Source: Blastocladiella emersonii ATCC 22665 (lineage: Eukaryota > Fungi > Blastocladiomycota). Taken from it: 64,000 nucleotides of DNA. A model generated the notes under the pieces. That model was not told the origin of the DNA and ran no database searches. It saw only the letters and a list, made by a program, of their open reading frames with translations. Shown here in pieces: positions 2,508 through 36,658 of the stretch (its first letter is position 1; each line of letters starts with the position of its first letter). Both the position numbers and the translations under genes were made by a program. The DNA is taken from the NCBI GenBank assembly GCA_025594325.1, contig JANHCV010000012.1, forward strand, positions 248,001-312,000. Direction: 5' to 3'.

Positions 2508-5179
2508 GTGGTGCCCGGGAGGGATATATACATAGGATACATGCCACACGCGGAGTGAGACAGACAGTTGAGTTGTGACGTGCAGGCGGCGAGCGCGTCG
2601 TTCAGTCGCACCCGCTCTCACTCACCTCTAGCTCCCCAACCCAGCTAGACAGCACATGCATCGCCACTTGATGAAACTTGGAGAGCACCGAGCACTTAGT
2701 CCGTAGGCAAGGACCTCATCGAGCCGCTGAGCCGGTTCCTTCCCGCCGGCAGGCGCAGCAGCAGCGGTTGAAGGGTTGGTCGCCCTGTGCCAGCAGACCC
2801 ACCAGCCGCAGCACTCGCCGCGTCTTGTACAGTCCGTCGTGGCCACTCAATTTCGCTAAGCAGCTGAGCCCGCGCTCGTTGACGCAGTCACCGGCGGCGT
2901 GTGCTGAATCCACGCCGCGACGAACTCGCAGTGTGGGCAATGCTAAAAGGTCAAGCGCATGACGGCGAGATTCGTCCAGCTGGCGGCATGCAACTTTACG
3001 CGTGGCATGTGCGCAACTATTGTCGTTTGCAGCCAAAATGCAACTGGCTTGCTCCCGTGGCTGATACCCGGGTGCTATCCCGGCCTGATAATTGTGTGGC
3101 GCCAGTGTGGCGCCACACGTCGCGGTGACCGCTTTCGCGCTCGCTCGGCCCCTCGCGATCTTCCAGTTGCTCAATAAAATCGCATGAACTTCATGCAGCA
3201 CTTGCAGCAACGTCATTGCGTGCTCAGCGGCCAAGCACTGCGCAGGATCCCACGCCGCGTCGCTGGAGCTGGCCGAGCGGCCGGAGCTCGCGAGCGCGCC
3301 GCCCACGCCAACGACCACGATCTCGGGCGCAGAAGCATGATCGGCGAAGAACTGGATGCTTGAGCTCGTGACGCTGCTGTCGGTGAGGTCAAACTTGCGA
3401 GCCTCAGTGAGCATCGCGGCGGGGTTGCCCGCGCGCAAGTCCTGGATCGCGTTCGATCCGTCGCCGGATACGTTCGGCAGCACGAGCGCCGCGCAACCTT
3501 TGGACACGCCCGCTCGTGCGTTGCGCAGCACGCGGTCGATGCCACGTTCGACTCGCGAACCATGCGCATCGGCTAGTTCAGAGTCCGCGGCCGCGCGAGT
3601 GCGAGTTTCGCAGCACGAGCAAGATCTTGAGTGTCACCGCTTGCGGCGGGACGAACCGGCGCGTCGCCTACAGTACGCGTGCGTGTCCTGCAGGTTCGCA
3701 ACGTACAAGAGCGAGTAGTAGTTCTCGGGCATGGTGGCGCCGAACACAACGTTGCTTCTAGCACATCTTGAACGCTGAGAGGGCAGGCTAGGGGTTGAGC
3801 CCGGTCCGCGTTCGTCACGGCGTCCTGCACGCGGAGCACCTCGCCAAACACCATCAAGTCGGTTGAGAAACGAGTCAGTGGTCGACGCGCCGTTTACTCG
3901 CGATCCACACGAGCAACCCGATGAACAAACCAGCCGCGAGCATGGCGCTGATACTGAGAACAAAGTCACGCCGCAGACCAACGGCGGCCAAGAGCGCGAC
4001 CGCCGCTGAGCGACGTGGGGCCCGCTCACCTCACTCATTGAGAACCTCGCGCGCCGCGACAGGATCGAGCGCGGCGAGCACATTGGCGGTGCCTTACTGC
4101 TCGAGTTGCGCCACGTACCGCAGGTGCGCACCCCCGCGGGAAGGCAGGACGTAGCGATGCCGTCGGGCAATGTATCCGTGATTATGAGGTACGCCTCGAT
4201 AGCGCGCGGCGCGCCGAGCTGCGTCGCACGCGCTCGGCCTGTCGGGAGCCCGAGGCGACGGGCAGCGGAGCTGTCACGCAGCGACGAGTTCCGCTTGGTG
4301 GCGATCACGGCCGCCTTCACATGGCGTCCGAAAACCGCGGCGCGCCAACTCACTCGCCCGCGGGCCGCTCAAACAGCCGTCCAGGCAGCCGCATCAATGA
4401 GTGCCGCACTACTATCGATCGTCACGCTCACGCGACGATGCGTGGCCTCGGCCGGCTGCGGGTCGCGCGAGCAAGACGTGGCCCGCGACGAGTCGCAGCA
4501 TTTACGCGAGGTTTGAGCGTCCGTGGCCGCTCCGGCGCACTGCCAACGCCGCAAACGTTGCAGACTCTCGTCGGCCCGACAGAGTGTCGCTGAGCGGCTC
4601 ACGGCCGAGTCGCAGAAGGCCGACAAGGGTCCCTCGAGCGCGACGCGTCGCGCGAATCCGCTCACAGCGATCGTCAGTGACGCGAGGAGCAAGTTGCATG
4701 CAGAGAATTATTAAGCTATTGCTTCATGGCAAGGGGAGGGAGCGATGGAGGCAGCGAGCGCTCGACACGGCCGCCGCGGCGCTCGCCAGTGATAATTCGT
4801 GGCACGTGACCGCGGAGTATCAGCCCGCCAGCAGCGGCGAAACTCATTTTGGCTGCAAACGACAATGCACCGATCTGTCGGAAGCCACGCTCTCCCGATT
4901 GGCGCAAATGAGCGGACGTGTGCTTCTTGCCCACTTCCACATCAACTTTCGTGGCTCACCTTTCTTACCGAACTCGCTCAACTTGCGGCACCCTTTTCCT
5001 CACTCCCAGAGTCTACTCGCAATGAGCTGTGCAGCTCACTTCTCGGCCAGTTCAAACACGACCGCGGTATCGACCTAACCGCGTTCGAGCTCAACATGCA
5101 GATCTGCGTGAACACAGCGCGCTGTAATCACGGTGTGGCGCTTCCTGACCAGCGACTCTGGGGTATTCTCATTCATACC

Positions 5180-5205
5180 TGCCGTATCCCTATAGGGATA
5201 CGGCA
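5180..5205. other. Perfect 26-bp palindrome at left terminus
   Basis: TGCCGTATCCCTATAGGGATACGGCA is its own reverse complement. Confidence 0.97.
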
Positions 5206-5419
5206 CGCGGCTGCCCTTAGGGACTTCGCCATCGAGTCGCGATTCACCCGGGGCTCCCAATTGAATTCCCGTTGCTTACCCCGAGTGACACGTCTCATTG
5301 CTTACCCCAAGTGAATGAATCCCCGTTGCTTACCCCAAGTGAATGCTATGAGTCATGCCGAAATCCTTAGGGATTTCGCCACCCGGACCGGAGGCCGAAG
5401 GCCGAAGCAGGTGGGCGGG
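5180..5419 (+). repeat. Left terminal inverted repeat
   Basis: 5180-5230 is the exact reverse complement of 18583-18633 (51 bp); 5363-5419 matches 18448-18504 (57 bp, 1 mismatch). The middle holds 3 copies of TTGCTTACCCC(A/G)AGTGA versus 1 on the right. Confidence 0.95.
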
Positions 5420-5639
5420 CGGGCGGCGGCGGGCGGGTCACGTGGATCACGTGCACATGAACGGCGCGGCGACGCGACCACGGAGTCACTCTACGACTTG
5501 GTCGGCGACTTGGTCGCGGCAATAGGCCCTTGAAGGCTCTCGGAATAATTCCACGAGAGGTCGGCGACTGGTCCAAGAACGCGAGCAGCGACCCAGGTCG
5601 GCGACCAGCCCCGGATGGCTCATCGTGGCCACCACCTTT

Positions 5640-5924
5640 GAACCGTTCGCCGTAAGCCATAGACGGGACTGGACGGGACTGTCCATTGAAAACTCGCTCG
5701 GGCTAAGCAGTGGACGTCAGGACGTCACTAAGGGGGTGTTTTGAAAAGTTAGCAGGGAAAGGGGGGGGAAGTGACCACTCGAGTGACAACTTCCCCCCCC
5801 CTTTCGAGTCTGGAGAGGTCAAAGACCCCCTTCAGTCCCGTCCAGTCCCGTCCATGGCTTACCCCGAGCGAGTTTCAATGGACAGTCCCGTCCAGTCCCG
5901 TCCATGGCTTACAGCAAACGGTTT
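5640..5924. repeat. Nested imperfect fold-back (~285 bp)
   Basis: Outer arms 5640-5708 / 5857-5924 (~70 bp inverted), middle AAGGGGGT/ACCCCCTT, inner hairpin 5758-5804 with central CACTCGAGTG; direct repeat CAGTCCCGTCCAGTCCCGTCCATGGCTTAC at 5833 and 5883. Confidence 0.85.
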
Positions 5925-5959
5925 GATGGAGCGGGCGGGGACGGCGGGTCCGTCCGTGG

Positions 5960-6090
5960 TTGGGGGTGCCAGGTCATGGAGGGTCAGGGCAGCCAGGTCA
6001 GGTGGGGGTCAGGCGGGGTCAGGTGACTGGGTCAGGTGACGGGGTCAGGCGGGGGTCAGATCAGGGGTCGGGTCGGGGGTGCCAGATCAG
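5960..6090 (+). repeat. G-rich GGTCAG(G) repeat block
   Basis: Many GGGGTCAGG / GGGGGTGCCAG units; inverse of the CCTGACCCC / CTGGCACCCCC block at 17398-17585. Confidence 0.8.
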
Positions 6091-6438
6091 GGCCCTGTGA
6101 GGGATTTTTCGCTAACCCTGGCCCTATAAGAACCCCCCGCTCCCCCCGCCCTGAGAACTGCTCTTTGCCACTCACTATGAAAGCCATGTCACAGATTCAC
6201 TGCCTCAAGCCCTGCTCCAAGTGTATAGGCCATCTTTGCAATGCGCCCAATGCTTGCAGTAGGCTTCTGGTATGGGTGCATGGCCAACATTGTGGGTGGC
6301 CACTTCCCTATTCCTTTGGCTTGAGTTTTACAGGGCTATCTGCTTGTGCACAGCAATAGACTTGGTTGACTCCTGTCTTGGTCTGGATCATGGATGCTGC
6401 TTGGATTAGCTACCCATGCAGTGCTCTTTGATCCATTC

Positions 6439-6462
6439 CTCTCTCTCTCTCTCTCTCTCTCT
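6439..6462 (+). repeat. (CT)n microsatellite
   Basis: Seen directly in the sequence. Confidence 0.9.
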
Positions 6463-6628
6463 TTTGGGTGTGTTGGCGCTGTGTGGTTCGATGAGTCTCT
6501 GTGGGATACCAACGGTCTTCCACAGTCTTTTGGGTGTGTTGGCGCTGTGTGGTTCGATGAGTCACTGTGGGATACCAACAGTATTCCACAGGCTTTTGGG
6601 TGTGTTGGCGCTGTGTGGTTCGATGAGT
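6461..6628 (+). repeat. 66-bp tandem repeat, ~2.5 copies
   Basis: CTTTTGGGTGTGTTGGCGCTGTGTGGTTCGATGAGT begins at 6461, 6527 and 6593; the intervening 30-mers are near-identical. Confidence 0.92.
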
Positions 6629-7404
6629 ATTAGCAATGATGCCTGCTCCGTGTTGGAACTCTGATTAGTGGCTGGCCACCATGAAAGGAGACCTCCAGCA
6701 TGGAGCAGTCTGGGAGGCGCTTGGCCAACGCTTCCTGGACAGGGCGGAGCACCCCTTATTTCTACTTTATGTCATTGCCGTAGTGTGTCCCGTTGCTACG
6801 TCATGCCAGGTGTGTTGAACGCGTTTGTTGAATTAAACTTTGTTGGACTACTGTAACCATGCGAGGCTGTATCAAAGAGATTGTTCCCCTGCCCAAGCCG
6901 CCGTGCGATCACTACGATGCTCCCAGCTGGGTCTACGACAATGAGCTGCTGTGGGCCCAAGTTGTGTACCCATGCTGCGGGCACAAGTACACATACCGGC
7001 GGGTAGTCTGAGAGCGACCAGTAAAGGCTTCAAGGTAGCTAACCAAGTTAACTTGAAGGATCTATTCAAAGCAGACAGTGTACACAACCTTGGCACCTGG
7101 CAGGGCCACGTCGCGGATGGCCGTGTAGTTGGCTGTTGACTGGGGGCCCAGACGGCCAGTCCAAGGGATGCTCGTGGAAGGTGCGCGGGGCGTTGATGCA
7201 GTAGAGCCAGTATTCATTGTCCTGTGTCTTACTATGCCTTTGCAGAAAGAATTTAAAGCACATGTTGTTGCTTACTCTACAACGCGGAATACTTTGCTTG
7301 TGTACCCGACAATGGCCAGGTTGGCTACGAGGATCAGGGCGTTGGTCGCAACAAGGAGCGTCTCGAGGATCATGTTTACAGTAAGACAACAATAAAAGTC
7401 AACG

Positions 7405-8148
7405 TCAGATGAACGCAAGCTCGACGTAGAAGGGTTGGCCGAGAAAGTCAACAGAGCGCAGGCTCTCGTCTACCACGTCAATGTCAATACAGTCAATCTG
7501 CTGGGCCTGTCCCTGCGCGTCAAAGCGAAAGTAGTCACCCATGTGTGGTCGATGCTCAAACCAGCTGCCAAAGGGTTGCGTGACATGGATGCTACAAAGT
7601 ACGCCGTTGTCTTGTGGGTAAGCGCTGTACATGTTGTCTGCGAGCCAGGTACCCAGGTTGCGCGAGTAGATGTGAAGCAGGTTGATGGGCGAGATGTTGA
7701 CCAGCGCCGACGCGTACTGGACCTTGCTGTAGCCATACGCTCCAACAAAGCCCATGTGGACGTTCAGCGACGCCGTCCCTGTTCCAATTGTAAAGTCGAC
7801 CGTGTCGTTGGCCAGGCGCATCTTCTGGGTAGTCGAGTCAACCTGGACGTCCCAGGTGCCCTGCCAGAGGTACGCCAAGGGCGCGTTGTTGAGCAGGCTC
7901 TTGAGCGTGGCTGTGAACGTATCGACTGTGTAGTTGCCGTCGGGGACTGTGATGGTGCCAGGGAACGTCAGCGCGCCTCGGCTCTGGGTCAGGTACACTT
8001 TGTTGGCCTTGGAGTTGACCGTGTGCCAGCTGTTGCAGAGGTACGCCGAGTTGACCTTGACGCCGCGCACGGACAGGGGTCGTGGCAGGTACAGGATGCC
8101 GTTCTTGAGGTCGCGGCTGCAGATGGTCAGCGTCTTGTACTCGGACAT
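7405..8148 (-). CDS. PLV minor capsid (penton, single jelly-roll) protein
   Basis: Motifs TLTICSRD, NSWHTVNSKAN, TITVPDGNYT, HMGF, NISPINLLHIYS, IDIDVVDESLRSVDFLGQPFYVELAF match the PLV/virophage mCP pattern as I recall it; located in the capsid cluster. Confidence 0.82.
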   Translation of the reverse strand: MSEYKTLTICSRDLKNGILYLPRPLSVRGVKVNSAYLCNSWHTVNSKANKVYLTQSRGALTFPGTITVPDGNYTVDTFTATLKSLLNNAPLAYLWQGTWDVQVDSTTQKMRLANDTVDFTIGTGTASLNVHMGFVGAYGYSKVQYASALVNISPINLLHIYSRNLGTWLADNMYSAYPQDNGVLCSIHVTQPFGSWFEHRPHMGDYFRFDAQGQAQQIDCIDIDVVDESLRSVDFLGQPFYVELAFI

Positions 8149-8166
8149 TTAAACAAAGACAACAAT

Positions 8167-8433
8167 TTATTGTACGGCCGTGCCTGTGTCGTCGGCGTCT
8201 GCTTCAAAAATCTCGCTCGTTGGTCGGTTGTACCAGGTGTGAATGTCTTGGGCGAGGTCGGCGCCCTTGGTCACCATCTGCGCAATGGAGCTCACGGCGG
8301 GGTTGTGCGACCGCTCAAAGAACTTGGACACGGTCTTGACGCCCTTGAGCACGGTTGGCATGTGTTTGTTGACAAAGGACCCGACTTGGCCAAGCACGTT
8401 GCTAAAGTTGGTCCATAGGTTGCAGAAGATCAT
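8167..8433 (-). CDS. Small viral protein with amphipathic helices (88 aa)
   Basis: Fills the gap between MCP and mCP; TAAACCCCGCCATG start context; N-terminus NLWTNFSNVLGQVGSFVNKHMPTVLKGVKTVSKFF is amphipathic. Confidence 0.65.
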   Translation of the reverse strand: MIFCNLWTNFSNVLGQVGSFVNKHMPTVLKGVKTVSKFFERSHNPAVSSIAQMVTKGADLAQDIHTWYNRPTSEIFEADADDTGTAVQ

Positions 8434-8475
8434 GGCGGGGTTTAACTCTACGCAAGAAAAAAAAGGACAGGGCCG

Positions 8476-9696
8476 TTACTTGTAGATGTTGATCTCGCCA
8501 GTCGGCAGGAACTCGTAGACCACGTCGATGCCAATGAAGGCGTCCACGCGCTGGTTTGGGGCCACGCTTGAAGTCAGGATCACCTGCATGTCCACGGCCC
8601 GCGACTTGCATGACTTGTCGCCACTCACCACGGTGCGACTCGACTCAAGGTCACGGCCAACAACAAAGGTACCCTCGGCCGGCGCGTTGAACTTGTCAAC
8701 TGTGAGGCCAGCGCCAATGACGTGGCCATGGAAGGCATTGGTCAGCTCAACAAACGCCTCAGACGCGTAGTCGTCGCAGCGGACAGGTTGCTGAGGGAAG
8801 AGTTGGCCGGCTACGCTGAACTGGTACGTGGTAATGGTCTTGGCGCGAAGGAACGAGTCCTTGGAGTTGTCATTGAGCACAGCATTGTCGCGGAACGACA
8901 GCAGGATGTCCTTTTGCGAGGCAGAGCGGTCCGAGACGTTGAGCGTTGAGTTGGGCACCGAGTAGTTCAGGAAGTGGTGGTTGTAGGTCGTACCAAAGAG
9001 CTTGAGCCCCTGCTTCTTGAAGGCCGCGTCCATGACCGCGATCTGCTGGTCGTTGAGCTTGATCAGGTCCGAGACAATGCAGACGTCCTTGACTGTGTAG
9101 CCCGGGATGGCATTGTTCTTGACCACTCAAGCGTCGCTGCCAGGCGCAAGGGTGAACTCGACGCGGATACCGCCTGTGTACTTCATGGGGAGGTGCTTCT
9201 GGTTTGCCAGCAGGGCCGACTTGATGGGCAGCATGTACCGGTGCAGCCCAGACAAGACAGCAAACTTGTCGGCGCCGGACGCAAAGTAGCCCTGTGCCAC
9301 GCCAAGACACGAGTCCTTGAGGTACTGGGGGACTGTCACGTCGGCCTCAATGCGCTGACGCAGGTTGTAGTACGGGAGCTCTTCGAGTAGGGCACCAGAC
9401 GCGCTGTAGATGCGGACGCAGTCAATGACGCTGAAGATACCATTGCAGAAGGCGACGTTGGCGTCCGTGGTCTTGGCTGAGAACTGCAGGAAAGTACAGT
9501 GCGTGTCCATCATGTCGTCGCGCGGCGGGAGCAGGACGCTGATGCTGTTGCCAGGAGCAAACTCGGGGCCGCCCTGAGCCGTGAACTGGACAGTCTGGCG
9601 CTCGGCATAGACAGACTCCTTGGGCAGGGTGAACGACATCTCGGGAGGGAGCGTCTTGGACAGGACCTGCGAGAACTGGGCGTTGGTACTGGACAT
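8476..9696 (-). pseudogene. PLV major capsid protein (double jelly-roll, ~406 codons) with one in-frame TGA at 9129-9127
   Basis: ORFs 9127..9696 and 8476..9126 are in frame and contiguous (...LAPGSDA*VVKNN...). Motifs FAPGNSISVLLP, SVIDCVRIYSASGALLEELPYYN, HLPMKYTGGIRVEFTL, YQFSVAGQLFPQQPV, FVVGRDLE, SG, DAFIGIDVVYEF...GEI are typical of PLV MCPs. Confidence 0.88.
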
Positions 9697-9736
9697 GGTT
9701 TGGTTTAGAACACTGCAACAAAAAAAAGTCGGCGGT

Positions 9737-10534
9737 CTATCCCTTCACGATCCACTCGCTGAAGCTGTCTACGAGCCGGTACTTGGGCGGGTTCTGGTTG
9801 TTGACGCCCAGGAAGCGTCGCTTTGTGTTGCCAGTACGCGTGTCAAAGAGCTGTTCGATGATGGCCTCAAACTCCTTGAGGTCGAACTGCGACCCAATCT
9901 CCTTGTGCAGCGTCTGGACCTCAGTCTTGTCGTAGATTGGGTAGACGACGCTGTACAAGCAGTTGATACGCAGAGTCTTGGGCAGGGCACACCACCGCTG
10001 GACGCCAATGATGCAGCTGATCTTTAAGTGCCGCGAGTTGCACAGAAAGTTGGTCAGCGTCTTGTGGCTCAGGAGCTTGAGCCCGAGCACGTTGTCGATG
10101 ATCAGCAGCTGGTCCTGGAGCGCCTTCTTGCCAGACTCTTCAAACGTCTTGGTCAGGTCTTGGCGCATCTTGAGCAGGGTTGGGATGAACTGCTCGGGGT
10201 CTGTGACAATGCAGCTTGGCTTGATCTTGAGCCGGTCCGGGTCGCGCTCCTGGGGGTCCAGCACGTTGCGCTCCTTCTTGGGCGGTCGCAGGATCGGTTG
10301 ACTGGCAATGTACTCGTACTTGTCGTTGGCGTGGAATGTTGGGTTGAACACCCAGATGTTGTCGAACTGGCCCTTGTAAAAGTGCGGGAAGCAGACCATG
10401 TTCGCGATCAGCGTTGACTTGCCCTGACCCTTGGCGCCAATGACGTTCATGGTAAATGGGTGCTTGGGGATTGGCAGCGGCTCGCCATCGTCGTTGCGTG
10501 TAAAGCCGTTGTCAATGGCAACAATGTCGTACAT
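9737..10534 (-). CDS. A32-like (FtsK/HerA) DNA packaging ATPase
   Basis: Walker A GAKGQGKS, Walker B LLIIDN, motif NSRHLKISCIIGVQRWCALPKTLRIN. Confidence 0.93.
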   Translation of the reverse strand: MYDIVAIDNGFTRNDDGEPLPIPKHPFTMNVIGAKGQGKSTLIANMVCFPHFYKGQFDNIWVFNPTFHANDKYEYIASQPILRPPKKERNVLDPQERDPDRLKIKPSCIVTDPEQFIPTLLKMRQDLTKTFEESGKKALQDQLLIIDNVLGLKLLSHKTLTNFLCNSRHLKISCIIGVQRWCALPKTLRINCLYSVVYPIYDKTEVQTLHKEIGSQFDLKEFEAIIEQLFDTRTGNTKRRFLGVNNQNPPKYRLVDSFSEWIVKG

Positions 10535-10560
10535 TTAAAGACTGCAAACAAAAAAGGGCG

Positions 10561-12276
10561 TCAGTCCCAGCCAAGGTCAAAGACAATGCCGCTGCGCTTT
10601 GGGGTCTCGCGGACCTGCTTGACGGGCCGCTCAGGGATCTTCTGGTGACGCTGGATCTTGGGCGCCGTCAGCCCGCTACCCGCTGCCCGCTTGTCCGTGA
10701 ACAGCTTCGCGTCGGTCGGCTTCTTGTAGCCCAGTTGCTTGAGGATCTGTTCGAGGAGCATGTCGGTCTTCTTAGAAGTACCACCGGAATTGTTTTGCGC
10801 GGCGAGCTCCCTGATCATGGCCTCGAGGCTGCTCGTGTCAGCAGGCTGGACAACGACTTGGGGTGCAGGAATAGTGTCCAGCTTGGACCCAAGGTCTTGG
10901 AGCGTCTTGGTCATGGCCTCGTTGCTCTGGGTCTGCCCTTGGATCGCGCCCTGGACGCCGCTTGCGAGCTGGTTCATGAGCACCTGCTGGTTGCTGAGCG
11001 CCGAGGACATGCCCGTGGCAATCTCGGACACAATCGCGCGGTTGCCAGCGTCGATCTGGCGGACAAAGTCGTTGCGTTCGGCTCAGAGCGTGTCCACGAT
11101 CCTGGACGCGAGGTTGGCAAACGAGTCCATGGCCAGTCCCTGAGCGGCCGCCGTCTGATCAATGAGCGCCTGGTACGCCTGGTACTGCATGACCTGGGAC
11201 CCAGCAAACTGCGAGGCAATGAGCTCAAGCGCGGCCATGACGTTTGGGTCATTGTTGTACTGGACCAGGATCTGCTGCCGCATGTCCACGTTCTGCTCGT
11301 AGTAGTTGTTCTCATACTGGGTGATGAACTGCCGCATGTCAATGTTCTGGGTGTCCTGCTGCGTGTAGCTGTTGTAGACGAACTGGTTGAACTGTTGAAA
11401 GTTCTGGACGACGTCGACTTCCATGTCGTCCGTGGTCATCAGCGCCCGCTCGGGGTTGTAGACCTGCAAGTCCTTGGAGCCCTCAATCATGCGTGCCTCG
11501 TCCATGGCCGGGTGGACGTGACCCTCGTTGTACACGCTTGGTCGCTGTGCCACGTCAGGGGCATAGCTTGGTGGCATGACCACAATGTCGCGTGTGCCGT
11601 CATCAAGTCGTGGTGGGAGGTCGTTGCCGCCGTCATTGTCGTTCTGGATCAGTTACCAGCCAGGGATCATGGCGCCGTACTCGTCAATGTCTTGGCCAAC
11701 GTAGTCGCCAGCCTCAACTGGGTACTGCTCGGGCATGACTGGCCGGACAGGCACGGGGAGCAAGTGGTCTGGTACAGCGTCCTCGTCAATGACGTCCAGG
11801 GCTCGCGAGATCTCTTCTGCCAGCTCGTCGCGTTCCTCTTCGCTGCTACCCCTGTCGCTGTCCGTGGCTGACTCGGGGGGCTCTGGTCCAGGACTTGCCG
11901 CTGGTGGAGCGACTGGGACTCGAGTAACCTTGCCCGTTGCCTGGTGCTCTTCCCACGCTTTAAGCGTATCTCGGACGTGCTCCTGGAGGTCCTTGACCTC
12001 GTACCCAGTGACGCTGTCCTGGTGCTTGAGGTAGAACAGCGAGTCGCCTCTTTTGCGGTCAAAGTCGTTGGCATAGCTCTCGGGCGTCACCTTGTAGTCA
12101 AAGGCAAGGATGTAAGGCACCCAGACGTCGAGGAGCTCTTTGGCATTGGGGAACGTGTACTCGCGGCCGTCAATGGTCGCCTTGATCTTCTGCCCTACAA
12201 GGCGCTCTGCCGTGATGCGCCCACCAGTTGCCTTGGTCACTCTTGCAAGTAGATCTGGTACTGTTCTTCGGCCCAT
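10561..12276 (-). pseudogene. Long viral ORF (~571 codons, Q/N-rich helical) interrupted by TAA (11655-11653) and TGA (11085-11083)
   Basis: ORFs 11653..12276, 11083..11583 and 10561..11031 share one frame. The linkers read open: PGW*LIQNDNDGGNDLPPRLDDGTRDIV and VDTL*AERNDFVRQIDAGNRAIV. Confidence 0.7.
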
Positions 12277-12353
12277 GATAGTTACTGTATGGACCGAAAA
12301 TAAAACGTCCCCCTGTTGGTACCTTTTTCCCCGTGGCAGGTGCCTTTTGTCCC

Positions 12354-12605
12354 TCAGACGGTGCTATTTGCCCCCTGGTCCCGGCGCTTGGCGTTGAGTG
12401 CCTTGTAGATCCGGATCTTGACCCGTTCGGCCCGCGCTGCCTCGTCGTTGACGTGTGTGTACCGGTTGGCCTTGCGGTCGCGCTTCCGTAGCCACTTGGC
12501 CTTGTCCTCGTCGCTCTTGCTGTACCAGCTGCTTGGCACAGGCATGGTCCCGGCGAGGTGCTCCTGCCACTTGTCCAGGCTCAGGTCATGGTCGCTGGAA
12601 ATCAT
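12354..12605 (-). CDS. Small basic hypothetical viral protein (83 aa)
   Basis: Fills the gap between neighbouring viral genes; K/R-rich helical C-terminus. Confidence 0.5.
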   Translation of the reverse strand: MISSDHDLSLDKWQEHLAGTMPVPSSWYSKSDEDKAKWLRKRDRKANRYTHVNDEAARAERVKIRIYKALNAKRRDQGANSTV

Positions 12606-12625
12606 TCTGTTTGCTTAAGTTAAAC

Positions 12626-14569
12626 ATGGTCAAGAATATCTTTAACGTCTCAAGTACTGCGTCTCTGACCGTGTCTGCCACTGGGGTCTCTGACGTGTCC
12701 AAGGCATACGTCGACGCGGCCATCAGTACCGTGTATGCCACAGTCGGTGCACCTGTTGCTGGCCCTGGCGTGGCAGTCTCAGGGACCACTGTCTCGGCCA
12801 AGGTCGACGACCAGACCCTTGGCGTGGGCGCAGCAGGGCTCTTTGTCAAGTCGGTCGGCACGGCACAGCTGCTCCCGGCCAGCGTCACGGCCGACAAGGT
12901 CGCGACCATTACAGCAGGGCAGGTCACAGGCAAGCTCGTTGATGCTCAGCTGGATACTGTGTCTGCGTCCAAGGTCGTGGGCGTGCTCAGTGCGTCCAAC
13001 CTCCCAGCCGTTGGGACCTTGGTCCTGGCAGACGGCTCAGTGACTGATGCCAAGGTCGCGTCCGTGTCTGGGTCCAAGCTTGTGGCAGGCACAGTCGGGA
13101 CCTCGGTCCTGGCAGACGGCGCAGTGACTGATGCCAAGGTCGCGTCCGTGTCCGGGTCCAAGCTCGTGGCAGGCACAGTCGGCACGGCAGCTCTCATTGA
13201 CCTGGCAGTCACGGATGCCAAGGTCGCGTCCGTGTCTGGGTCCAAACTCGTTGCAGGGACTATTGGGACGGGAGCCCTGGCAGACGCAGCCGTATCCAAC
13301 GCCAAACTGGCAACTGGCATTGATGGGTCCAAGCTGGCAGCCGGCACAGTCGGCACCTCGGTCCTGGCAGACGCGGCTGTGACCAACGCCAAGCTGGCAA
13401 CTGGCATTGACGGGGCCAAGCTCAACGTCGGGTCCATTGGAACGGTCCAGCTGGCAGCAGGCGCAGTCACAGACGCCAAGGTCACGGACGTGTCGGCGGT
13501 CAAGCTCACTGGGACCCTCGACCCTGCCCGCATCGCCAACGGGACCCTGACCAACGCCAAGCTGGCATCTGGCATTGACTCGGCCAAGCTTGCAGGGACC
13601 ATTGACCTGGCACGACTCCCCGACGTCTCGGCCAAGGTCACAGCCGTGAGCGCGGCCTCGGTCACTGGCACGCTCCCCCAGTCCACCCTTGGGCTCGGCG
13701 CTGACTTTGCCTTTGCGAATACGACGGACAGCTCGACGTCAAGCACTGGAGCAGTCACCATTGCTGGTGGTCTTGGAGTCAGCAAGCAACTGACTGTGCC
13801 CAACGTCCTGGTCCAAAATGCCACGAGCGCAAACCTTGTCTTTGACTCAGCTGCCAATACATTGACGTACGTCGACTTTAAGCAGGCAGGCGTCCTCAAG
13901 AGCAACCTGGCATGCACGGCGGCGGGTAACATTGAGATTGCGTCCGCGACCACGGGCGGGGTCTCCCTTGTGGCAGGTGGCGGCAACGTGGTCGTGGGCT
14001 CGGCGACGCTTGGCACAGAAAAGCTCCGCGTCAATGGCACTGGTCGGTTTACAGGGCAGCTCACCCTTGACCTCGCTCCCGTGGCAGGCACTGACGCGGC
14101 AAACAAGGCGTACGTCGACTCGCGGTCCAGCCTGACCCGGTACGTTGCTCAGGCCGAGCACCGCTCCACAAACGGAGTGACCACGGGCGGCAAGATCATT
14201 GGCGGCACAGCGTCGACAGGTCCGGCCACCTTTGCGTTCCAGTCCACGGCGGGCGCGTTCACGTCCGTGATCAATGGATGCGTCAAACCCCCTGTCAGTG
14301 GCTACTACCTTGTCCATGCAAAGGGCTACTACGCAAACGGCACGCTCCCTGGATCCCACACTGTGAACTTTGCGCTGTACAACATGACGGACATGATTGC
14401 AGTGTCGCTTGTCACCGGGTGCCGCGCTGAAGGCAACGTCCAGTTCCTTCAGTTCTTGAGCATCGAGTACCTTGACGCGGCCAAGAGCTACTCTTTCATC
14501 TGGATCCCGTTGGTGGCAGTTGCCAACGACTGCCAGGTCATCATTCAAAGCCATTGGGCCATGCTCTAA
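12626..14569 (+). CDS. Fibre/spike-like protein (647 aa) with 28-29 aa repeats and putative C1q/TNF-like head
   Basis: ATG in TAAACATG context; repeats (T)xxLADxAVTDAKVASVSGSKLVAGTVG (84-bp DNA period at 13042/13126/13210); KAYVD motifs; TTDSSTSSTGAVTIAGGLGV motif; C-terminal VKPPVSGYYLVHA. Confidence 0.78.
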   Translation: MVKNIFNVSSTASLTVSATGVSDVSKAYVDAAISTVYATVGAPVAGPGVAVSGTTVSAKVDDQTLGVGAAGLFVKSVGTAQLLPASVTADKVATITAGQVTGKLVDAQLDTVSASKVVGVLSASNLPAVGTLVLADGSVTDAKVASVSGSKLVAGTVGTSVLADGAVTDAKVASVSGSKLVAGTVGTAALIDLAVTDAKVASVSGSKLVAGTIGTGALADAAVSNAKLATGIDGSKLAAGTVGTSVLADAAVTNAKLATGIDGAKLNVGSIGTVQLAAGAVTDAKVTDVSAVKLTGTLDPARIANGTLTNAKLASGIDSAKLAGTIDLARLPDVSAKVTAVSAASVTGTLPQSTLGLGADFAFANTTDSSTSSTGAVTIAGGLGVSKQLTVPNVLVQNATSANLVFDSAANTLTYVDFKQAGVLKSNLACTAAGNIEIASATTGGVSLVAGGGNVVVGSATLGTEKLRVNGTGRFTGQLTLDLAPVAGTDAANKAYVDSRSSLTRYVAQAEHRSTNGVTTGGKIIGGTASTGPATFAFQSTAGAFTSVINGCVKPPVSGYYLVHAKGYYANGTLPGSHTVNFALYNMTDMIAVSLVTGCRAEGNVQFLQFLSIEYLDAAKSYSFIWIPLVAVANDCQVIIQSHWAML

Positions 14570-15678
14570 AGCCCGCGGTCCCACTTTTCTTGGACTCGGA
14601 CTGGGACGCGCCTGACCCGGGTCGAGGGCTCCCTTGGTGTGACCGGGGTGCGCGCAACAGGGGGCCTTGGAAGACTTGGGGCCATGCGTGGCCTGGTCGG
14701 CGGGTCCTGGGTTGCTGTGACTGGCTGGACGTCGCTTCGAGGGTAGAAGCCCTTGAGACCTTGGACCTTGTAGCTTGGATTGCTCATGCCTGACCCCTTG
14801 CGCACAACCTGGACCTGGCTCACAGTTGGCGACCAGACCGGCTTCCCCTTGGCCTCCATGGCAGTCTTGTACGGCTCGCGGACTCGGACCTGGGCCCCTA
14901 CCTTCAGCAACGCGCTCAGAGGGTCGCCTTCTGGCTTGCCCTTGGCAGCTCGGATCGCCTTGAGTGTGTCCTTGGCCATTTCGCGGGGCATGTCATGGAA
15001 CTCGTTGGGCGCCCTGCCCGTGGCCCTTGACTTGCTGCTGTTGATCACAGATTCAATGGTCTCGAGGTGCTTGGGCCAGTCGTTGTTGCCTGGGATGGAC
15101 AGCCACGGCGTCAGCATCCGGCGGATGGTCCCATTCATACGCTCAACAACACCTTGACCGTATGGCACGCCTGCCTTGCCCTTGATGTGCTTGACGTCGG
15201 TCCCGGCCTCAATGCCAAAGAACTCGGTGCCATTGTCCGTCTGGATTGTGGCAGGTACAAGGCTGTGCTTGGCGACCACGCCAGACCATGCTTCCCGCGT
15301 CTTGTCCTTGGTCTTGACTGGGCGTAGGTAGACGCGCCGACTCGCGAGGTCGACACACGTAAGAATGTAATGGAAGCCTTTGTACGTACCGTTTTTGCCC
15401 ATGTCAATGAGGTCAAGCTGGAAGTTGCGTCCCGGACTGGTTGAGCTGATGCTTCGAATGTCTTGCCGCTTCTGTGGTGCGCGCTTGTACTGCTGCCACA
15501 CGGACTGGTCGTTGAGCCACCGCTCGAGCTGGGCGCGGTAGATGTGCTTCCCTGTATGCTCGCGGTCAACAATGTCAAAGAGCCGGTGGATCCCAACCCC
15601 GACGTGGCCGCGTTTGTAGTACAAGTCTGTCAGGTACTCGGTCTGTTCAGCAGTCAAAGGTTCTTTGTGTGGGTACAT
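14566..15678 (-). CDS. Polinton-type rve (DDE) integrase with C-terminal SH3-like domain
   Basis: FQLDLIDM (D), YILTCVDLASR, IQTDNGTEF (D), QGVVERMNGTIRR (E), DWPKHL, LKVGAQVRV. Stop overlaps the fibre stop by 4 bp. Confidence 0.95.
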   Translation of the reverse strand: MYPHKEPLTAEQTEYLTDLYYKRGHVGVGIHRLFDIVDREHTGKHIYRAQLERWLNDQSVWQQYKRAPQKRQDIRSISSTSPGRNFQLDLIDMGKNGTYKGFHYILTCVDLASRRVYLRPVKTKDKTREAWSGVVAKHSLVPATIQTDNGTEFFGIEAGTDVKHIKGKAGVPYGQGVVERMNGTIRRMLTPWLSIPGNNDWPKHLETIESVINSSKSRATGRAPNEFHDMPREMAKDTLKAIRAAKGKPEGDPLSALLKVGAQVRVREPYKTAMEAKGKPVWSPTVSQVQVVRKGSGMSNPSYKVQGLKGFYPRSDVQPVTATQDPPTRPRMAPSLPRPPVARTPVTPREPSTRVRRVPVRVQEKWDRGL

Positions 15679-15698
15679 TACAATACAACAGACAAAAG

Positions 15699-16841
15699 TT
15701 ACACCATGTAGTGGGCGACGGCGACAGGCACGCTGTGACCCATCTCATTGGCGCGCTGGGCAATGGCCGCGTAAGCCCCGGCGTTCTCGCTCGCGGCAAT
15801 CCAACGGATCTGCTGCACGCCGCACCCGTCAAACTTGAGCTTCTTGGTAGCAAGGCCAATCGTCTTGGACCAGTCCTTGCAAATGGCCGTGTTCACCTTG
15901 GCGTTGTCAAGGTCCTTGATCGTGTAGTCAAAGAACAGCAGCTCGTAGCCGTCTTCCTTGCGCTTGGCCATGACCCGCTCCAGGGCGTCTGCCACGTTGG
16001 GGTTGGCAATGACGTGCGAGAACTCATAGCCACGACCCTCGGTCTTGACACAGATTGGGCCAGCCAGCGTCTTGGTCTTGGGGTTGTAGGATGGGTACTT
16101 GTCGCTTGGGGCTGTGGTCAGGAACGCGAGGTCGCTGCGGGTCGCGCACACAACTTGGAGGTACAGGCGGAGGTAGCGCATGGTGCCCGTGCACTCGAGC
16201 TTGTCCCATTTCTCAGCAGCAACCGCGGCGGCCAGCAGAACGGCACGGCTTGGAAGGGCGCCCGACTTGAGCTCCTTGCGCACGTCCACGCTGGCGTCGG
16301 CGTCCCGCTTCTTGGCCTCCGTGTACTTGGCCCCAAGCTCAGTCCACCCGTTCCACGTACAGTACTTGGCCAAGGCCTTGAGCGTCTCGACCTGCAGGCC
16401 CTGGACGTTCTTGGACCCCTTGGTCGCGCGGTACGTGGCCACGGCCTTGGACACGGCCTCGACGTCCTGGATGTCCATGCCTGACTTGGCAAATGCAAGG
16501 AGCACGCGAGTCGTCTTCGCCTTGTCCATGTCGCTCAGCGTAGCCTGCTCCCCGTTCTTGTTCACCACGGGCGCGTTGACACATGCCTCAATGGCCTCCT
16601 CGGTCAGCTCGGCGAACTTGACCTCGGGTGCATCGACTTCCACGGGAGTGACTTGCTGATCAGCGCCGTGATCTGGGTCGTGTGACTCGATGGCCTTGAG
16701 TCGCGCGTCAAAGTCCATGAAGCGCTTGTCAATAGACCCAAATACGGGCTGGAGCTTGTCCATGACTTGCTGCACCACGTCTGCGGCAACATGCTGAGCA
16801 AGGGCAACGGCGACCTGGGAGACAAGAGACTTGAGCGACAT
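15699..16841 (-). CDS. Tyrosine recombinase (PLV/virophage type)
   Basis: Catalytic residues in the expected order: ATRSD (R), VKT (K), QQIRWIAAS (R; the HxxR His is Gln), EMGHS (H), AHY (Y) at the C-terminus. Confidence 0.82.
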   Translation of the reverse strand: MSLKSLVSQVAVALAQHVAADVVQQVMDKLQPVFGSIDKRFMDFDARLKAIESHDPDHGADQQVTPVEVDAPEVKFAELTEEAIEACVNAPVVNKNGEQATLSDMDKAKTTRVLLAFAKSGMDIQDVEAVSKAVATYRATKGSKNVQGLQVETLKALAKYCTWNGWTELGAKYTEAKKRDADASVDVRKELKSGALPSRAVLLAAAVAAEKWDKLECTGTMRYLRLYLQVVCATRSDLAFLTTAPSDKYPSYNPKTKTLAGPICVKTEGRGYEFSHVIANPNVADALERVMAKRKEDGYELLFFDYTIKDLDNAKVNTAICKDWSKTIGLATKKLKFDGCGVQQIRWIAASENAGAYAAIAQRANEMGHSVPVAVAHYMV

Positions 16842-16966
16842 GGTTTACTGACTGTCAACAAAAAGGCTCCATGGGCTCAAGTGCGTTTGAACGCAACGTT
16901 CTTTTTTCTGGGTAGCTGGGCCTGGGTCAGGGTCAGGGTGGTGGCAAGTCATGGACCGTGGGAGGG

Positions 16967-17400
16967 CCCAGGTCACGGTTTGAGCGGATTGTGACCTCGG
17001 CCTCTGCTGGCGCCCAAGTCGGGGTCATGGGGGGGGTGGAGGTCAGGTTCTTTGCCCTCAGTCGTGTCCCAGGTCACGGTTTGAGCGGATTGTGACCTTG
17101 GCCTCAACTGGCTCCCAAGTTGAGCTCATGGGGGGTTCGTGACCTCGGCCTCTGCTGGCGCCCAAGTTGGGGTCATGGGGGGGGTGGAGGTCCGGTTCTT
17201 TGCCCTCAGTCGCGTCCCAGGTCACGGTTTGAGCGGATCGTGACCTCGGCCTCAACTGGCTCCCAAGTTGAGCTCATGGGGGGTTTGTGACCTCGGCCTC
17301 TGCTGGCGCCCAAGTCGGGGTCATGGGGGGGGGGGGGGGGGGTGGAGGTCCGGTTCTTCGCCCTCAGTTGCATCCCAGGTCACGGTTTGAGCGGATCGCC
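16967..17400 (+). repeat. Modular tandem repeat, 4 copies (101/148/158-bp spacing)
   Basis: CCCAGGTCACGGTTTGAGCGGAT at 16967, 17068, 17216 and 17374; optional ~47-bp module in copies 2-3; G18 run at 17325-17342. Confidence 0.92.
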
Positions 17401-17585
17401 TGACCCCCCAACCTGACCCCCTGACCTGGCACCCCCGACCCTCCTTGACCCGGCACCCCCAACCTGGCACCCCTGACCTGGCACCCCCGACCCTCCTTGA
17501 CCCGGCACCCCCAACCTGGCACCCCCGACCCTCCTTGACCCGGCACCCCCGACCCTCCTTGACCCAGCACCCCCGACCTGGCACG
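17398..17585 (+). repeat. C-rich CCTGACCCC/CTGGCACCCCCGACCCTCCTTGACC repeats
   Basis: Seen directly; inverse of the left block at 5960-6090. Confidence 0.85.
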
Positions 17586-17606
17586 TCCCTTCCTGCTAAG
17601 ACGCTG

Positions 17607-18183
17607 CCTGCTAAGACGCTCCCCTGCCCTGACCCCGTACCCTGACCCTCTGTCTTTGATTAATACATTGATTAATACATTGATTAATACATTGATGCTG
17701 CTAAGACGCTCCCCTGCCTTGACCCCCGTACCCCAACCTCTTGTCTTTGAAAGTCCCGTTTTTTACTACAGAAACCGTGGTTTGTATAGTACTCTGACTG
17801 TTTCATAGCAAAAAACGGGACTTTTACGGTGATAGCTTCATAGCAGTTGCTTGCGGCAGGTGGTCAGGGACAGGATCGGGGACGGGATCGGAGACTTGAT
17901 CATGGGTTGGCTCATGGATCAGCTCGGGGTCCCTGCTAAGACGCTCCCTCGCCGACCCCCCGTACCCTGACCCTTGTCTTTGATTAATACATTGATTAAT
18001 ACATTGATGCTGCTAAGACGCTCCCCTGCCTTGACCCCCGTACCCCGACCTCTTGTCTTTGAAAGTCCCGTTTTTTACTACAGAAACCGTGGTCTGTATA
18101 GTACTCTGACTGTTTCATAGCAAAAAACGGGACTTTTACGGTGATAGCTTCATAGCAGCCGCTTGCGGCAGGTGGTCAGGGAC
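17607..18183 (+). repeat. ~260-bp direct repeat x2 (17607-17871, 17932-18183), each with a GATTAATACATT array and a 15-bp-stem hairpin
   Basis: Near-identical copies; arms AAAGTCCCGTTTTTT / AAAAAACGGGACTTT at 17750-17764/17810-17824 and 18062-18076/18122-18136; 12-bp unit x3 versus x2. Confidence 0.92.
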
Positions 18184-18410
18184 GGGCTCGGGGGTCAGGT
18201 CAGGGACGGGCTCGGGGGTCAGGTCAGGGACAGGCTCGGGGGTCAGGTCAGGGACCAGACCAGGGAACTCTGTCAGTGGGTAGCCGCAGCTGCGCTGCTC
18301 TTCGTCTCGCTGCGCTCGCCGGCCGCCGCCGACCGCTCAGGGTAAGCAATGGTCAGGGACCAGCTCGGGGGTCAGGTCAGGGACGGGCTCGGGGGTCAGG
18401 TCAGGGACTC
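18170..18410 (+). repeat. GGTCAGGGACGGGCTCGGGGGTCA repeats
   Basis: Several ~28-bp copies seen directly. Confidence 0.85.
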
Positions 18411-18447
18411 ACTCCTCGACCACTCGCCCCTCCCTTCCGCCCACCCT

Positions 18448-18633
18448 CCCGCCCACCTGCTTCGGCCTTCGGCCTCCGATCCGGGTGGCGAAATCCCTAA
18501 GGATATCGCTATATTCATTATGAGTCACTTGGGGTAAGCAATGAGATATCACGTGGGTTAGCCCGGGTGGATAGAGTCCAGAGGCGAAGTCCCTAAGGGC
18601 AGCCGCGTGCCGTATCCCTATAGGGATACGGCA
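18448..18633 (-). repeat. Right terminal inverted repeat ending in the same 26-bp palindrome (18608-18633)
   Basis: Reverse complement of the left TIR blocks. Confidence 0.95.
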
Positions 18634-18732
18634 TGAAGAATGAGATGAGGGTTGTGTTCGCTGCGGATCATGTTCACTGGTCTTGCGGGCGGGTAGAAAC
18701 AATGACATTTATTTATGCTCGACGCACGTGCA

Positions 18733-19013
18733 AGTTGGAGTAATCGCTGTGTGATGGCACATGCGTTTTAGTCCACTCTCGCTTCCCTTCTTCAGGTTAT
18801 GAGCCCTGAATTCGATTCCGTCTGCGCTCGATATTCGTCTCGTCGTCTGTCGCCCCTCACGCTCCATCGCAACGGACCCACGAAAGGTTCGGGAGCAAGC
18901 TCCATGACAGCAGACCCACGGACAGGTTTGGGAGCTCGAGTGAGGGGGAGAGTTGGATTAATCGCTGTATCATGGCACATGCGTTTTAGTCCACTCTCGC
19001 TTCCCTTCTTCAG
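18733..19013 (+). repeat. 63-bp direct repeat x2 (18733-18795, 18951-19013)
   Basis: AGTTGGA.TAATCGCTGT...GCTTCCCTTCTTCAG in both copies; ends like an intron acceptor. Confidence 0.8.
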
Positions 19014-34349: not shown

Positions 34350-36658
34350 ATGAAAAACGACTTGATGCAATCGCATGCAAACGACCCGGGCAGCACCTAG
34401 CTGTCGGCGCCGACGGAGCTGATCAACGTCGTCGTCCAACTCGCGGAGCCTCGCGCCACCGTTGCGGCTGCTTCGGCCTTTTTTTACGACTTTGCTCAAG
34501 ACGATCGCGTCAATTTTGCTTGGACCGTTTCCGTCGTGAACCGGCTCATCGTAAGAGGGGATCGCGAGCCGCGGCGCGCTCGCGATGCGTTCACGCGCTT
34601 CATTGAGGTGGATCTCAACCCTCCCGAAGTCAGAGAGGCTGCTTTACGAGACTATGGTACCTACTCAGACTATGGTACCTACTCTTACGCCCCGGCACCG
34701 GCTTAACTTTTCGTCAACTTGGCCAAGCTTCTGCGGCGGCGCGTCCGACTCTGCGACCTCAATTCGGACTCAATGCGTCAGCACCTCGCAGCTCCGCTCT
34801 CCGAGACGATTGACTTCATCTCAAGAAATGCGCTCTCGACACTCGTTCGACTGATTGTCGTGGCCGTCGCGTTTGGGTGGACCGGCCGACTGCGGCAAAT
34901 TCTTGACGACGTTATCGCGGAGAAGCAGTCGCTTCTCGATGTCAAACTATCGCTCGCGGAGTGGTCGCGGGTCGTGCACGCTCACTGTCACAACCCTTTT
35001 TCTGTCGAGGAGTTTGGTGACATGCCTCCCTCGCCGCTTCGGTTTGTGGACGCCCTGGCGTATATTGCCATTCTCTCGTGGGAGCAACCGAGCTTCGACC
35101 TTCTCCTTGGCGATCCCCGACTCATGGTGGACGTGCCGACTTTGGGGTCCCTTGTCTGCATGGAGGGGCCCTCCGTCTACGCGCTCCTCAGCTTGCTCAA
35201 CGGAAGAGTTGATGCCAGCGATTCCGCAAATACTCTCAATGGACTCTTCGCTTGGATTTTCCACCGTGCATCGCGTATGCCTGACGGCGTTCTCAACCTG
35301 TACGTGCACTCAAGCGTTAGCGCGGGCCACCAGGTCTTCATGCCCCTCCTTGCTGAGTTCCCTGGTCCGGTCTTGGCTGCCTTGGAGTATAACGACGGAA
35401 TCCAAGACTTTCCCATCGAGCCCGCACTTCCGTTCTTTGACGAGGGGAACGAGGCCGACTCCCAACTCGGTGCTCAAATAACTGAGTGGTACAACGAGGA
35501 GCTTTCCTTCCAGAGTCTCGAGCTGCTCGACGGCCACGGACTCATTGCTCCCAAGCGCTGGGTCGCGATTCTCGGCGCAGCCCTCGCTCGCGGCCATATC
35601 GATATTGTTGAGCGGATTCGCGGGCGTCATGAACCGGGACATTGGAAGCAACTTCTCCTTGAGGGTACGTGACACAAGCAGCTTTTGATTAGTTTCGGTT
35701 GCTAAGACTGCGCCTGCCGAGTGTAGTATTTTGCGATAGTCACGACAACTTCCGCCTTCGCGAAGGGGTCAGTGCGGCTGTGCTTCGCTACGCGCTAGTT
35801 CCGTGCTCTCTCAACGACGGTAAGGTTCAGCTGAGCCTGTCCGAATTCGTGACGTTCTTTCGCGCAAATGTTCATCGCGAAGGGCGAGAGGTCCCGCTTG
35901 GCGCGTTCTTGCTTGAAGCTGCAGGTCATCTAACGATCCCCGCCGAGCTTGCTGAGCTTCTCGCTTCGTGCTTCGATGACGACGGTCCGCTTGGTTTGGA
36001 GCTGCTCGACCTCGTTTACCTCCTTGCATCGGCCGCTTCGCACCAGTCCACCAAAAGGGGGTTCATGTATTTGCTTGGCAAGTCCGAGACGGTGCATTAC
36101 TACTTGTCCGCTGTAATCCGGTCTCTTTTGCTGCCCAAGTCGGCTTCGGATGCGCATGATCCTCTCACATCTCTTGGTGACCTGGATTTCTCACGTTGCA
36201 CCGATTGCCCCCTTGCGTGGCAGTCAGCCTGGCAGGATCTAGTCCGCACACTCCTATCCAAGTGCAAGCCGGAGCAGCTCCAGTCGCTCATTCCGCACGT
36301 CGAGTACGTGTGGTCGCGATTGTGCAGTGTGGGTCACGATTCCAAGTCAGCGCAGGAGTGCGGCTGCGATCCTCTCAAATCCGCACAGCTCGTCGCGCTC
36401 GCCATGCTCCAGGGCGACTCGGAACGTGCACTAGCTGCGCTTCAGGACGAAGCCCAGTCGGGTAAAATCTCGCCGGGCGTCCTGCGCGTTTTTCCCAACG
36501 GCGCGCTCAAGAACGCAACGGACATTGCTCGGCTGCGTCAGATCGCCCACAGTCTTGTTTCGGACGCAGGCGTGACCTCGGACGGCAAAAATTGGGTTAA
36601 AGTCGAGCTAGCGCGGATCGCTCTCACGTTGGCCCAGTATGCGGAGTCCAGCTTTTGA
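34350..36658 (+). pseudogene. Family B copy 1 (unknown ~750-aa protein) with nonsense codons at 34398 (TAG) and 34704 (TAA)
   Basis: Aligns by eye to copies 2 and 3 from MKNDLMQS onward; intron 35665-35726; 18-bp duplication (DYGTYS x2). Confidence 0.8.

Follow-up and report, generated by a model that had tools for sequence, protein, structure and literature searches.

Palindromic tips of an integrated Polinton-like virus in the fungus Blastocladiella emersonii: a likely trace of fold-back ends

The element and its two DNA-joining enzymes

A stretch of 64,000 nucleotides from Blastocladiella emersonii ATCC 22665 (contig JANHCV010000012.1, positions 248,001 to 312,000; hereafter the window) contains an integrated Polinton-like virus (PLV). 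The element spans positions 5180..18633 of the window (13,454 bp). Its ends read 5'-TG...CA-3' and are not accompanied by a target-site duplication. Both ends are formed by the same perfect 26-bp palindrome, TGCCGTATCCCTATAGGGATACGGCA, at 5180-5205 and 18608-18633. These palindromes are taken to be the exact tips of the integrated virus and, somewhat more probably than any other origin considered here, what hairpin (fold-back) ends have left behind in double-stranded form.

The element has the features of a PLV, namely an A32-type packaging ATPase, terminal inverted repeats (TIRs; 51 bp perfect and 101 bp at 85%), and an integrase of the retroviral type (RVE) together with a tyrosine recombinase (YR). 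A Polinton/Maverick in the strict sense would also carry a protein-primed DNA polymerase B (pPolB), and no open reading frame (ORF) of fitting size or family lies in 5180-18633. The absence of pPolB, noted in an earlier sequence-only reading of the locus, thus holds. Moreover, the ORFs filling 7405-16841 include nothing that can be recognised as a polymerase, primase or helicase, although the unassigned ORFs of at most 207 aa are not fully excluded as such. No protease was recognised in the element either.

The RVE integrase is encoded at 14566..15678 on the reverse strand. It has 370 aa, an open frame and D-D-E motifs, and it stands alone, without fusion to a reverse transcriptase. The Pfam family rve matches it with an E value of 2.2e-6, below the curated cut-off. 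It is 30% identical over 342 columns to the integrase of a virophage-like contig (L001; E 1e-31). Among 2756 candidates the integrase had one match, and Blastocladiella matches were lacking, which is not evidence that sister copies are without an integrase. One gene model (P0043) repeats the YR of the window, fused to portions of the integrase. TG...CA ends are the rule for retroviral-type integrases, and the ends of the element fit this enzyme. The sequence-only reading had pointed to the YR as the encoded DNA-joining enzyme. The YR is indeed present, but the intact integrase next door was not mentioned.

The YR gene follows at 15699..16841, also on the reverse strand, and encodes 380 aa. The residues R235, K266, R346, H369 and Y378 are kept, Q343 occupies the usual His place, and W347 adjoins the catalytic R346 (positions were counted by hand, and the nine-sequence alignment was read by eye). 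In this alignment, K, H and Y are present in all nine sequences, the first R in the eight rows that cover it (8/8) and the second R in eight of nine. Where His is usual, the alignment has Q, A or R, with Q or A in most sisters. W347 (TGG codon at 15801-15803) is R or H in most sisters, while a twin of this YR (P0042) also has W; judging from the sequence, this residue may weaken the YR of this copy.

A structure was modelled for a sister protein (P0003, 65% identical, pLDDT 82), and an earlier YR model with a pLDDT of 43 was set aside. The sister model has the core-binding and catalytic parts of the YR fold. Its best structural match is XerA (Z 10.6, root-mean-square deviation 13.4, 230 aligned residues). 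XerH follows with Z 9.5 (root-mean-square deviation 3.6, 151 aligned), topoisomerase IB with a VIA Z of 9.7 and Cre with 9.5, against 5.4 for TelK and 4.5-4.6 for TelA. With Foldseek, XerA, lambda integrase and TelA tie at the top (E 0.015-0.03). The best viral structure matches are unnamed or uncharacterised proteins of giant viruses and virophages, plus one annotated Tyr recombinase; the ResT/TelK protein of EhV-86 ranks 20th among the viral models. At the sequence level, the Pfam family Phage_integrase weakly matches two of nine family members (best E 0.005), the Pfam telomere-resolvase family none of the nine. By sequence, the YR had no match in PDB, PHROG or NCBIfam.

From the model and the retained residues, the protein encoded at 15699-16841 is assigned the tyrosine-recombinase fold, as had been proposed. 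Its relation to the protelomerases, also proposed, would fit the Foldseek tie that includes TelA, but not the Z scores, which remain at 4.5-5.4 for these enzymes compared with 9.5-10.6 for XerA and Cre. The modelled fold appears no nearer to protelomerases than to Xer and Cre, and a protelomerase identity is not favoured. TelA can be changed into a recombinase of the Cre type by a few mutations (PMC12270096), so the fold alone cannot decide between protelomerase and recombinase.

Terminal palindromes and sub-terminal repeats

The palindromes, reported by the sequence-only reading as identical, perfect and forming the outer part of a 51-bp perfect TIR, were confirmed for this copy. The left arm of the TIR lies at 5180..5230 (forward strand) and its partner at 18583-18633. 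Further inside, a second inverted repeat of 101 bp (85%) pairs 5326..5426 (forward strand) with 18441-18541. When up to three mismatches are allowed, TGCCGTATCCCTATAGGGATACGGCA is found at two sites in the window, a number reached in none of 100 shuffles. The chance expectation for perfect 26-bp palindromes in 64 kb is about 0.0013. The window holds 16 perfect palindromes of at least 14 bp, and the sole one longer than the terminal ones is a 30-bp tandem repeat at 52059.

The division of the palindrome into 10-bp arms around a symmetric 6-bp centre, CTATAG, is arithmetically right. The centre is self-complementary, as is that of any even perfect palindrome, so this property is not diagnostic. 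If the two ends are joined at the palindrome, a perfect 76-bp palindrome results, which follows from the 51-bp inverted repeat. As single-stranded DNA, the terminal 74-81 bases form a terminal hairpin (z -3.7 and -3.3); any palindrome would do so, and the result counts for little.

Related units lie further inside. A half-unit with a further copy of the arm motif is found at 5214..5231 (reverse strand; partner 18582-18599). Degenerate 26-bp palindromes lie at 5356..5381, again with TG...CA ends and with two of 13 pairs broken, and at 18486..18511, with three of 13 pairs broken. The left one may represent a former end or a site where an enzyme binds. The terminal palindromes, sub-terminal palindromes and half-units make up six units that can be aligned without gaps, and the arm motif recurs with fixed letters in five copies per end.

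In sister copies, short-read contigs end loosely behind 18476 and 18478, and their last 30 letters display the sub-terminal place in other versions. The arms vary in letters and length, yet they are still largely self-complementary over the 30 letters, and the centre has three letters and is asymmetric. Such paired changes and changes in length suit arm-to-arm copying through a hairpin, while a fixed, recurring arm motif suits the binding site of a dimeric enzyme. Both may be true of the sub-terminal units. The variants had also been considered as termini of sister elements. This was dropped, as their location is that of the sub-terminal site and the contigs continue for at least 18 letters.

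The centre of the inner units (5214-5222, 5365-5372, 18495-18502 and 18591-18599) reads CCCTAAGG(G). This includes the common telomere word CCCTAA/TTAGGG, whose presence may be due to chance or to a host telomere-protein site.

Junctions, flanks and sister copies

The boundaries were examined with short-read contigs from four runs (X1-X4). All four come from one sample, perhaps the source of the assembly, and do not provide independent support. At the left end, the palindrome is flush with the boundary; a contig of X3 (4700-5418) bridges palindrome and junction with no differences. In X1 and X2, a single-copy host contig ends at 5209, which, for a word length of 31 letters, corresponds to a boundary at 5180. 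On the right side, contigs from each of the four runs depart from the window sequence directly behind 18633, where other flanks begin in sister copies. The loose right end of X1 and X2 is a mix of two contigs, one of which fits the left flank of this copy by eye.

Altogether, five flanks abut the terminal CA, namely the two of this copy, one from X1/X2 (partly resolved), one from X3 and one from X4. Host DNA changes directly after the terminal CA at these five flanks, which means that both palindrome arms belong to the element. Had a crossover taken place in the 6-bp centre, the outer arms would be of host origin, so integration did not take that route, and hybrid half-sites of the lox/dif type are not found.

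The palindrome, whose conservation in other copies had been suggested as a check, is not invariant. Palindrome-bearing ends do meet other flanks. The commonest sister right end, however, differs from the window at four places in X1, in X2 and in X4 alike, one of them at 18530, and X3 puts the other three within 18604-18633. A second right-end variant in X3 differs from the window once.

The host flanks of this copy share an 8-bp inverted repeat (5167-5174 and 18639-18646), which was noticed after the fact and is equalled by 0.47% of 20,000 random joins. The first seven letters of this motif recur within the TIR at 5293 and 18540, and the motif is absent from the two fully read sister flanks. 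In the right flank, 18638-18740 has no contig cover in any of the four runs; the records are filtered, so this proves nothing. Bin counts in X1 and X2 suggest a short piece over about 18607-18635.

The element is multicopy in Blastocladiella emersonii. All seven matches of the 380-aa protein (7995 candidates scored) are gene models of this species, representing 20 member sequences. Likewise, seven of eight matches of the capsid-like protein are gene models of the species (37 member sequences), the eighth being a distant relative. The annotation of the contig includes a twin of the YR of this copy, with 99% identity. The observed/expected CpG ratio is 0.84 in the element and 1.23-1.27 in the flanking DNA, and TpG/CpA are in excess. 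This depletion fits methylation-driven decay.

Among viral contigs, scans for the palindrome pattern and for the TIR motif gave no matches. Searches for viral loci with the YR alignment, the capsid alignment and an integrase relative (P0041) returned no loci. The best three of 22 integrase-related loci (L001-L003), which cover only part of each contig, have no terminal palindrome or TIR.

Origin of the terminal palindromes

A palindrome is left where a hairpin is opened off-centre, as with P-nucleotides. In the ends of parvoviruses (rolling hairpin), a terminal palindrome folds back and primes copying. A similar sequence of events may be envisaged for the element, all of its steps being inferred. 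Both ends of the free genome would be folded back over 13 bp; a circle or concatemer with one palindromic junction would be equivalent. The RVE integrase would cut after CA, 13 bases from the fold, and that 3' end would be joined to host DNA. Host repair would copy through the opened fold and generate the full 26-bp palindrome at each end, keeping the arms matched. A circle with a single palindromic junction would give the identical outcome through a 26-base staggered cut. After release, the 3' arm would fold back and prime copying by a polymerase of the host or of a helper virus, and a protein-primed polymerase would not be needed. The YR probably binds the repeated arm motif and would release the element or resolve its replication junctions, with circles or hairpins as conceivable products.

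This account is favoured because the palindrome is perfect, flush with the boundary, CA-ended and present at both ends, for which an opened fold-back is the simplest explanation. The preference, a cautious one, concerns the core, i.e., fold-back ends opened by the integrase. The intact stand-alone integrase, the lack of a recognisable replicase and the sub-terminal variants of sisters, which stay largely self-complementary, also speak for it, and terminal palindromes with an RVE integrase and no pPolB have been reported together with a hairpin-priming model elsewhere (10.64898/2026.07.28.741278). A hairpin-ended free form of the genome is plausible.

Several observations weigh against fold-back ends. 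With three differences in the last 30 bases, the palindrome may be imperfect at the commonest sister end. The fixed-letter motif, with its five copies per end, suggests a role in protein binding no less than a structural one. A target-site duplication, which a strict Polinton/Maverick would show with 5-6 bp, was found for this copy in none of 245 combinations of length and offset, and no two of the five flanks pair as one. No family match confirms a double-jelly-roll capsid for the 406-aa capsid-like protein of the element. Finally, no hairpin, circle or fold-back joint is present in the short-read contigs, which could hardly show one. As for the missing duplication, RVE integrases typically give 6-bp duplications and YRs none, and only 23-58% of the PLVs in RVE-rich clusters show a duplication (PMC12220804).

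Among the alternatives, a telomere resolvase is possible, though on the unlikely side. The YR would cut the palindrome with a 6-base stagger and seal the hairpins, so that a linear genome like that of N15 would be copied by the host and the RVE integrase would open the hairpin at CA. It can be combined with fold-back ends opened by the integrase and, if true, it would account for the presence of two unlike DNA-joining enzymes in a single small virus. All known protelomerases cut with a 6-bp stagger (PMC3558466), which the self-complementary 6-bp centre matches. The tie of TelA with XerA and lambda integrase in Foldseek, and the 76-bp palindrome that joined ends would form, also fit. So does the Q or A at the place of the second His in most sisters; protelomerases are likewise variable at this place. 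In contrast, TelK and TelA score below XerA and Cre, EhV-86 ResT/TelK appears only at rank 20, and the Pfam resolvase family matches no member of a family in which Phage_integrase matches two. Resolution at integrated sites would presumably also break the chromosome. Furthermore, palindromic tips occur in PLV subtype 4 of Halocafeteria seosinensis, although the preprint on these elements (10.64898/2026.07.28.741278) gives RVE and YR together only for virophages; the YR may thus be dispensable. A literature search found no paper joining PLVs with a protelomerase, or Blastocladiella with a Polinton.

The use of the palindromes as lox- or dif-like sites is improbable. In this case, the YR would excise a circle or invert the element, one palindrome would stay behind, and the integrase would reinsert the circle at another place by a 26-base stagger at CA. 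The closeness of the fold to XerA and Cre, the 10+6+10 geometry and the repeated arm motif speak for it. YRs of polisuviruses are also said to yield circular excision products (10.64898/2026.10.13.758929). Nevertheless, a solo palindrome between host DNA is not among the short-read contigs at the right end, and the sub-terminal sites of sisters have an asymmetric 3-letter centre. By itself, such excision also leaves replication without a polymerase unexplained.

It is quite improbable that insertion was the work of the YR, with a cut at the palindrome's outer edge in the style of conjugative transposons, with the palindrome being a dimer-binding site or a repair by-product without a role in priming. 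The lack of a target-site duplication is what is seen in PLVs using a YR (PMC12220804), and the 8-bp inverted repeat shared by the flanks, rare among random joins though seen only afterwards, would agree. As an alternative to a hairpin role, accidental annealing is named in preprint 10.64898/2026.07.28.741278. The TG...CA ends and the intact integrase argue against insertion by the YR, as does the missing 8-bp motif in the two fully read sister flanks. With a YR twin of 99% identity on the same contig, flanks may also have been shuffled between twins.

That the palindromes were made or homogenised by polishing or mis-joining during assembly is very improbable: the commonest right-end contig does differ at three of the last 30 bases, and the assembly may have been made from the sample of these runs, but contigs span the left palindrome and junction with no differences, and each of the four runs has ends with the palindrome next to other flanks. 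Doubt is left at most about the exact identity of the right end of this copy.

Comparison with known systems

Palindromic tips themselves are not new. In Halocafeteria seosinensis, terminal palindromes were described in endogenous virophages of subtypes 1, 2, 5 and 6, as well as in PLV subtype 4 (bioRxiv 10.64898/2026.07.28.741278). In this preprint of July 2026, the palindromes lie next to duplications and are tied to RVE integrases and non-pPolB replicases. Hairpin priming was proposed there for the palindromic ends, as a proposal only. The element in B. emersonii resembles those elements in having a palindrome at the TIR extremity, an RVE integrase and no pPolB. The differences are several. 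The Halocafeteria palindromes adjoin a target-site duplication, and the copy examined here has none. The palindrome is 26 bp long here, compared with 52 nt in Halocafeteria subtype 5, and the host is a fungus. No replication gene is recognisable, whereas the Halocafeteria elements carry their non-pPolB replicases. RVE and YR occur together in a PLV-like element, a combination that the preprint gives for virophages only, and there are extra sub-terminal copies. What sets the element apart is the fungal host, the lack of a recognisable replicase, the stand-alone RVE integrase with a YR in a PLV-like element, and the sub-terminal copies.

With Polintons and PLVs in general, the element shares TIRs, an A32 ATPase, capsid-like genes, an RVE integrase and the presence of many copies (PMC10120064, PMC12220804). 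It differs by the absence of pPolB, by the lack of a recognised protease or helicase and by its short TIR. Many PLVs and related elements have no detectable polymerase (PMC10120064), in a survey that left out fungi. The inverted repeats of PLVs have been discussed as YR substrates and origins (PMC11296320), while PMC13533422 and the PgVV preprint gave no further information on ends.

Of the 8300 elements in PMC12220804, no more than 12 have both RVE and YR, and in all of these the RVE is fused to a reverse transcriptase. In the element described here, the RVE stands alone. The virophage-like contig L001 from IMG/VR has an RVE integrase directly beside a convergent YR-like ORF (9995-12125), and the pairing thus occurs elsewhere. 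No relation between the YR of L001 and that of the element could be detected (probability 0.4). By the two published accounts (10.64898/2026.07.28.741278, PMC12220804) the pairing in a PLV-like element is rare, yet L001, a virophage-like contig, has it.

With TelN, TelK, TelA and ResT, the element shares a YR-type catalytic fold, a short palindrome and a symmetric 6-bp centre. Unlike in those systems, the structural scores are lower than for Xer and Cre, and the site occurs twice, flush with the integration boundaries; the system is known here from sequence and model. Cre/loxP and XerA/dif provide the best structural matches and likewise have two arms around a short spacer. Here, in contrast to them, the integrated ends are not host/element hybrids and the spacer is symmetric. 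Compared with the parvoviruses, no HUH Rep nickase was recognised, the gene set is that of a double-stranded PLV, and opening would be by the RVE integrase.

It is an open question by what means PLVs that lack a protein-primed polymerase copy and shield their ends (10.64898/2026.07.28.741278, PMC10120064). Short perfect tips, the lack of a recognisable replicase, two adjacent small candidate enzymes, dozens of related gene models and a culture-collection strain make the element a good test system. Hairpin priming, opening by the integrase at CA and resolution by the YR become testable in it.

Other genes and surrounding window

The packaging ATPase of the A32 type is encoded at 9737..10534 (reverse strand; Pfam Pox_A32, E 2.9e-11). 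Beside it, a major-capsid-like gene of 406 codons (8476..9696, reverse strand) is interrupted by an in-frame stop at 9127-9129. The protein is multicopy. An ORF of 247 aa at 7405..8148 (reverse strand) has no family match and is a putative minor-capsid (penton) gene, judged solely by its position and pattern. The capsid-like label is likewise putative and was given on PLV motifs and gene context; no search confirmed either label.

Given the stop in its capsid-like gene, this copy is probably defective. Read-through of the TGA was considered and rejected, as the sister proteins are open at that place. One gene model (P0010) omits the same stretch around the stop, and the near-identical twin may share the defect. 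At several sister loci (P0025-P0038), capsid-like models of 406 aa and about 300 aa have consecutive locus tags, which suggests either that part of the gene was duplicated in tandem or that there is a second capsid gene.

Four ORFs of 149, 164, 207 and 83 aa (10561..12605, reverse strand) have no significant family match. They are followed on the forward strand by a gene for a 647-aa fibre-like repeat protein (12626..14569), which matches Pfam Phage_Tail_Tip (E 2.7e-8) and a PHROG tail fibre. Behind the YR gene, 16850..18440 is non-coding and filled with direct-repeat arrays (148-bp, 312-bp and 14/24-bp spacings), a candidate origin or enhancer region. In the left non-coding end, an inverted repeat of 64 bp (5628-5936; 86%), whose arms lie 181 bases apart, contains tandem motifs.

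Immediately to the left of the element, an inverted repeat with perfect 22-bp arms (3019-3040 and 4845-4866, 1804 bases apart) possibly marks the ends of a small DNA transposon; its flanks show no obvious duplication. In the right flank, 18733-18795 and 18951-19013 form a 63-bp direct repeat (95%). Further to the right, tandem arrays of host genes occupy 34357-42732 and 56318-60470, their units recurring roughly every 2.75 kb and 1.87 kb.

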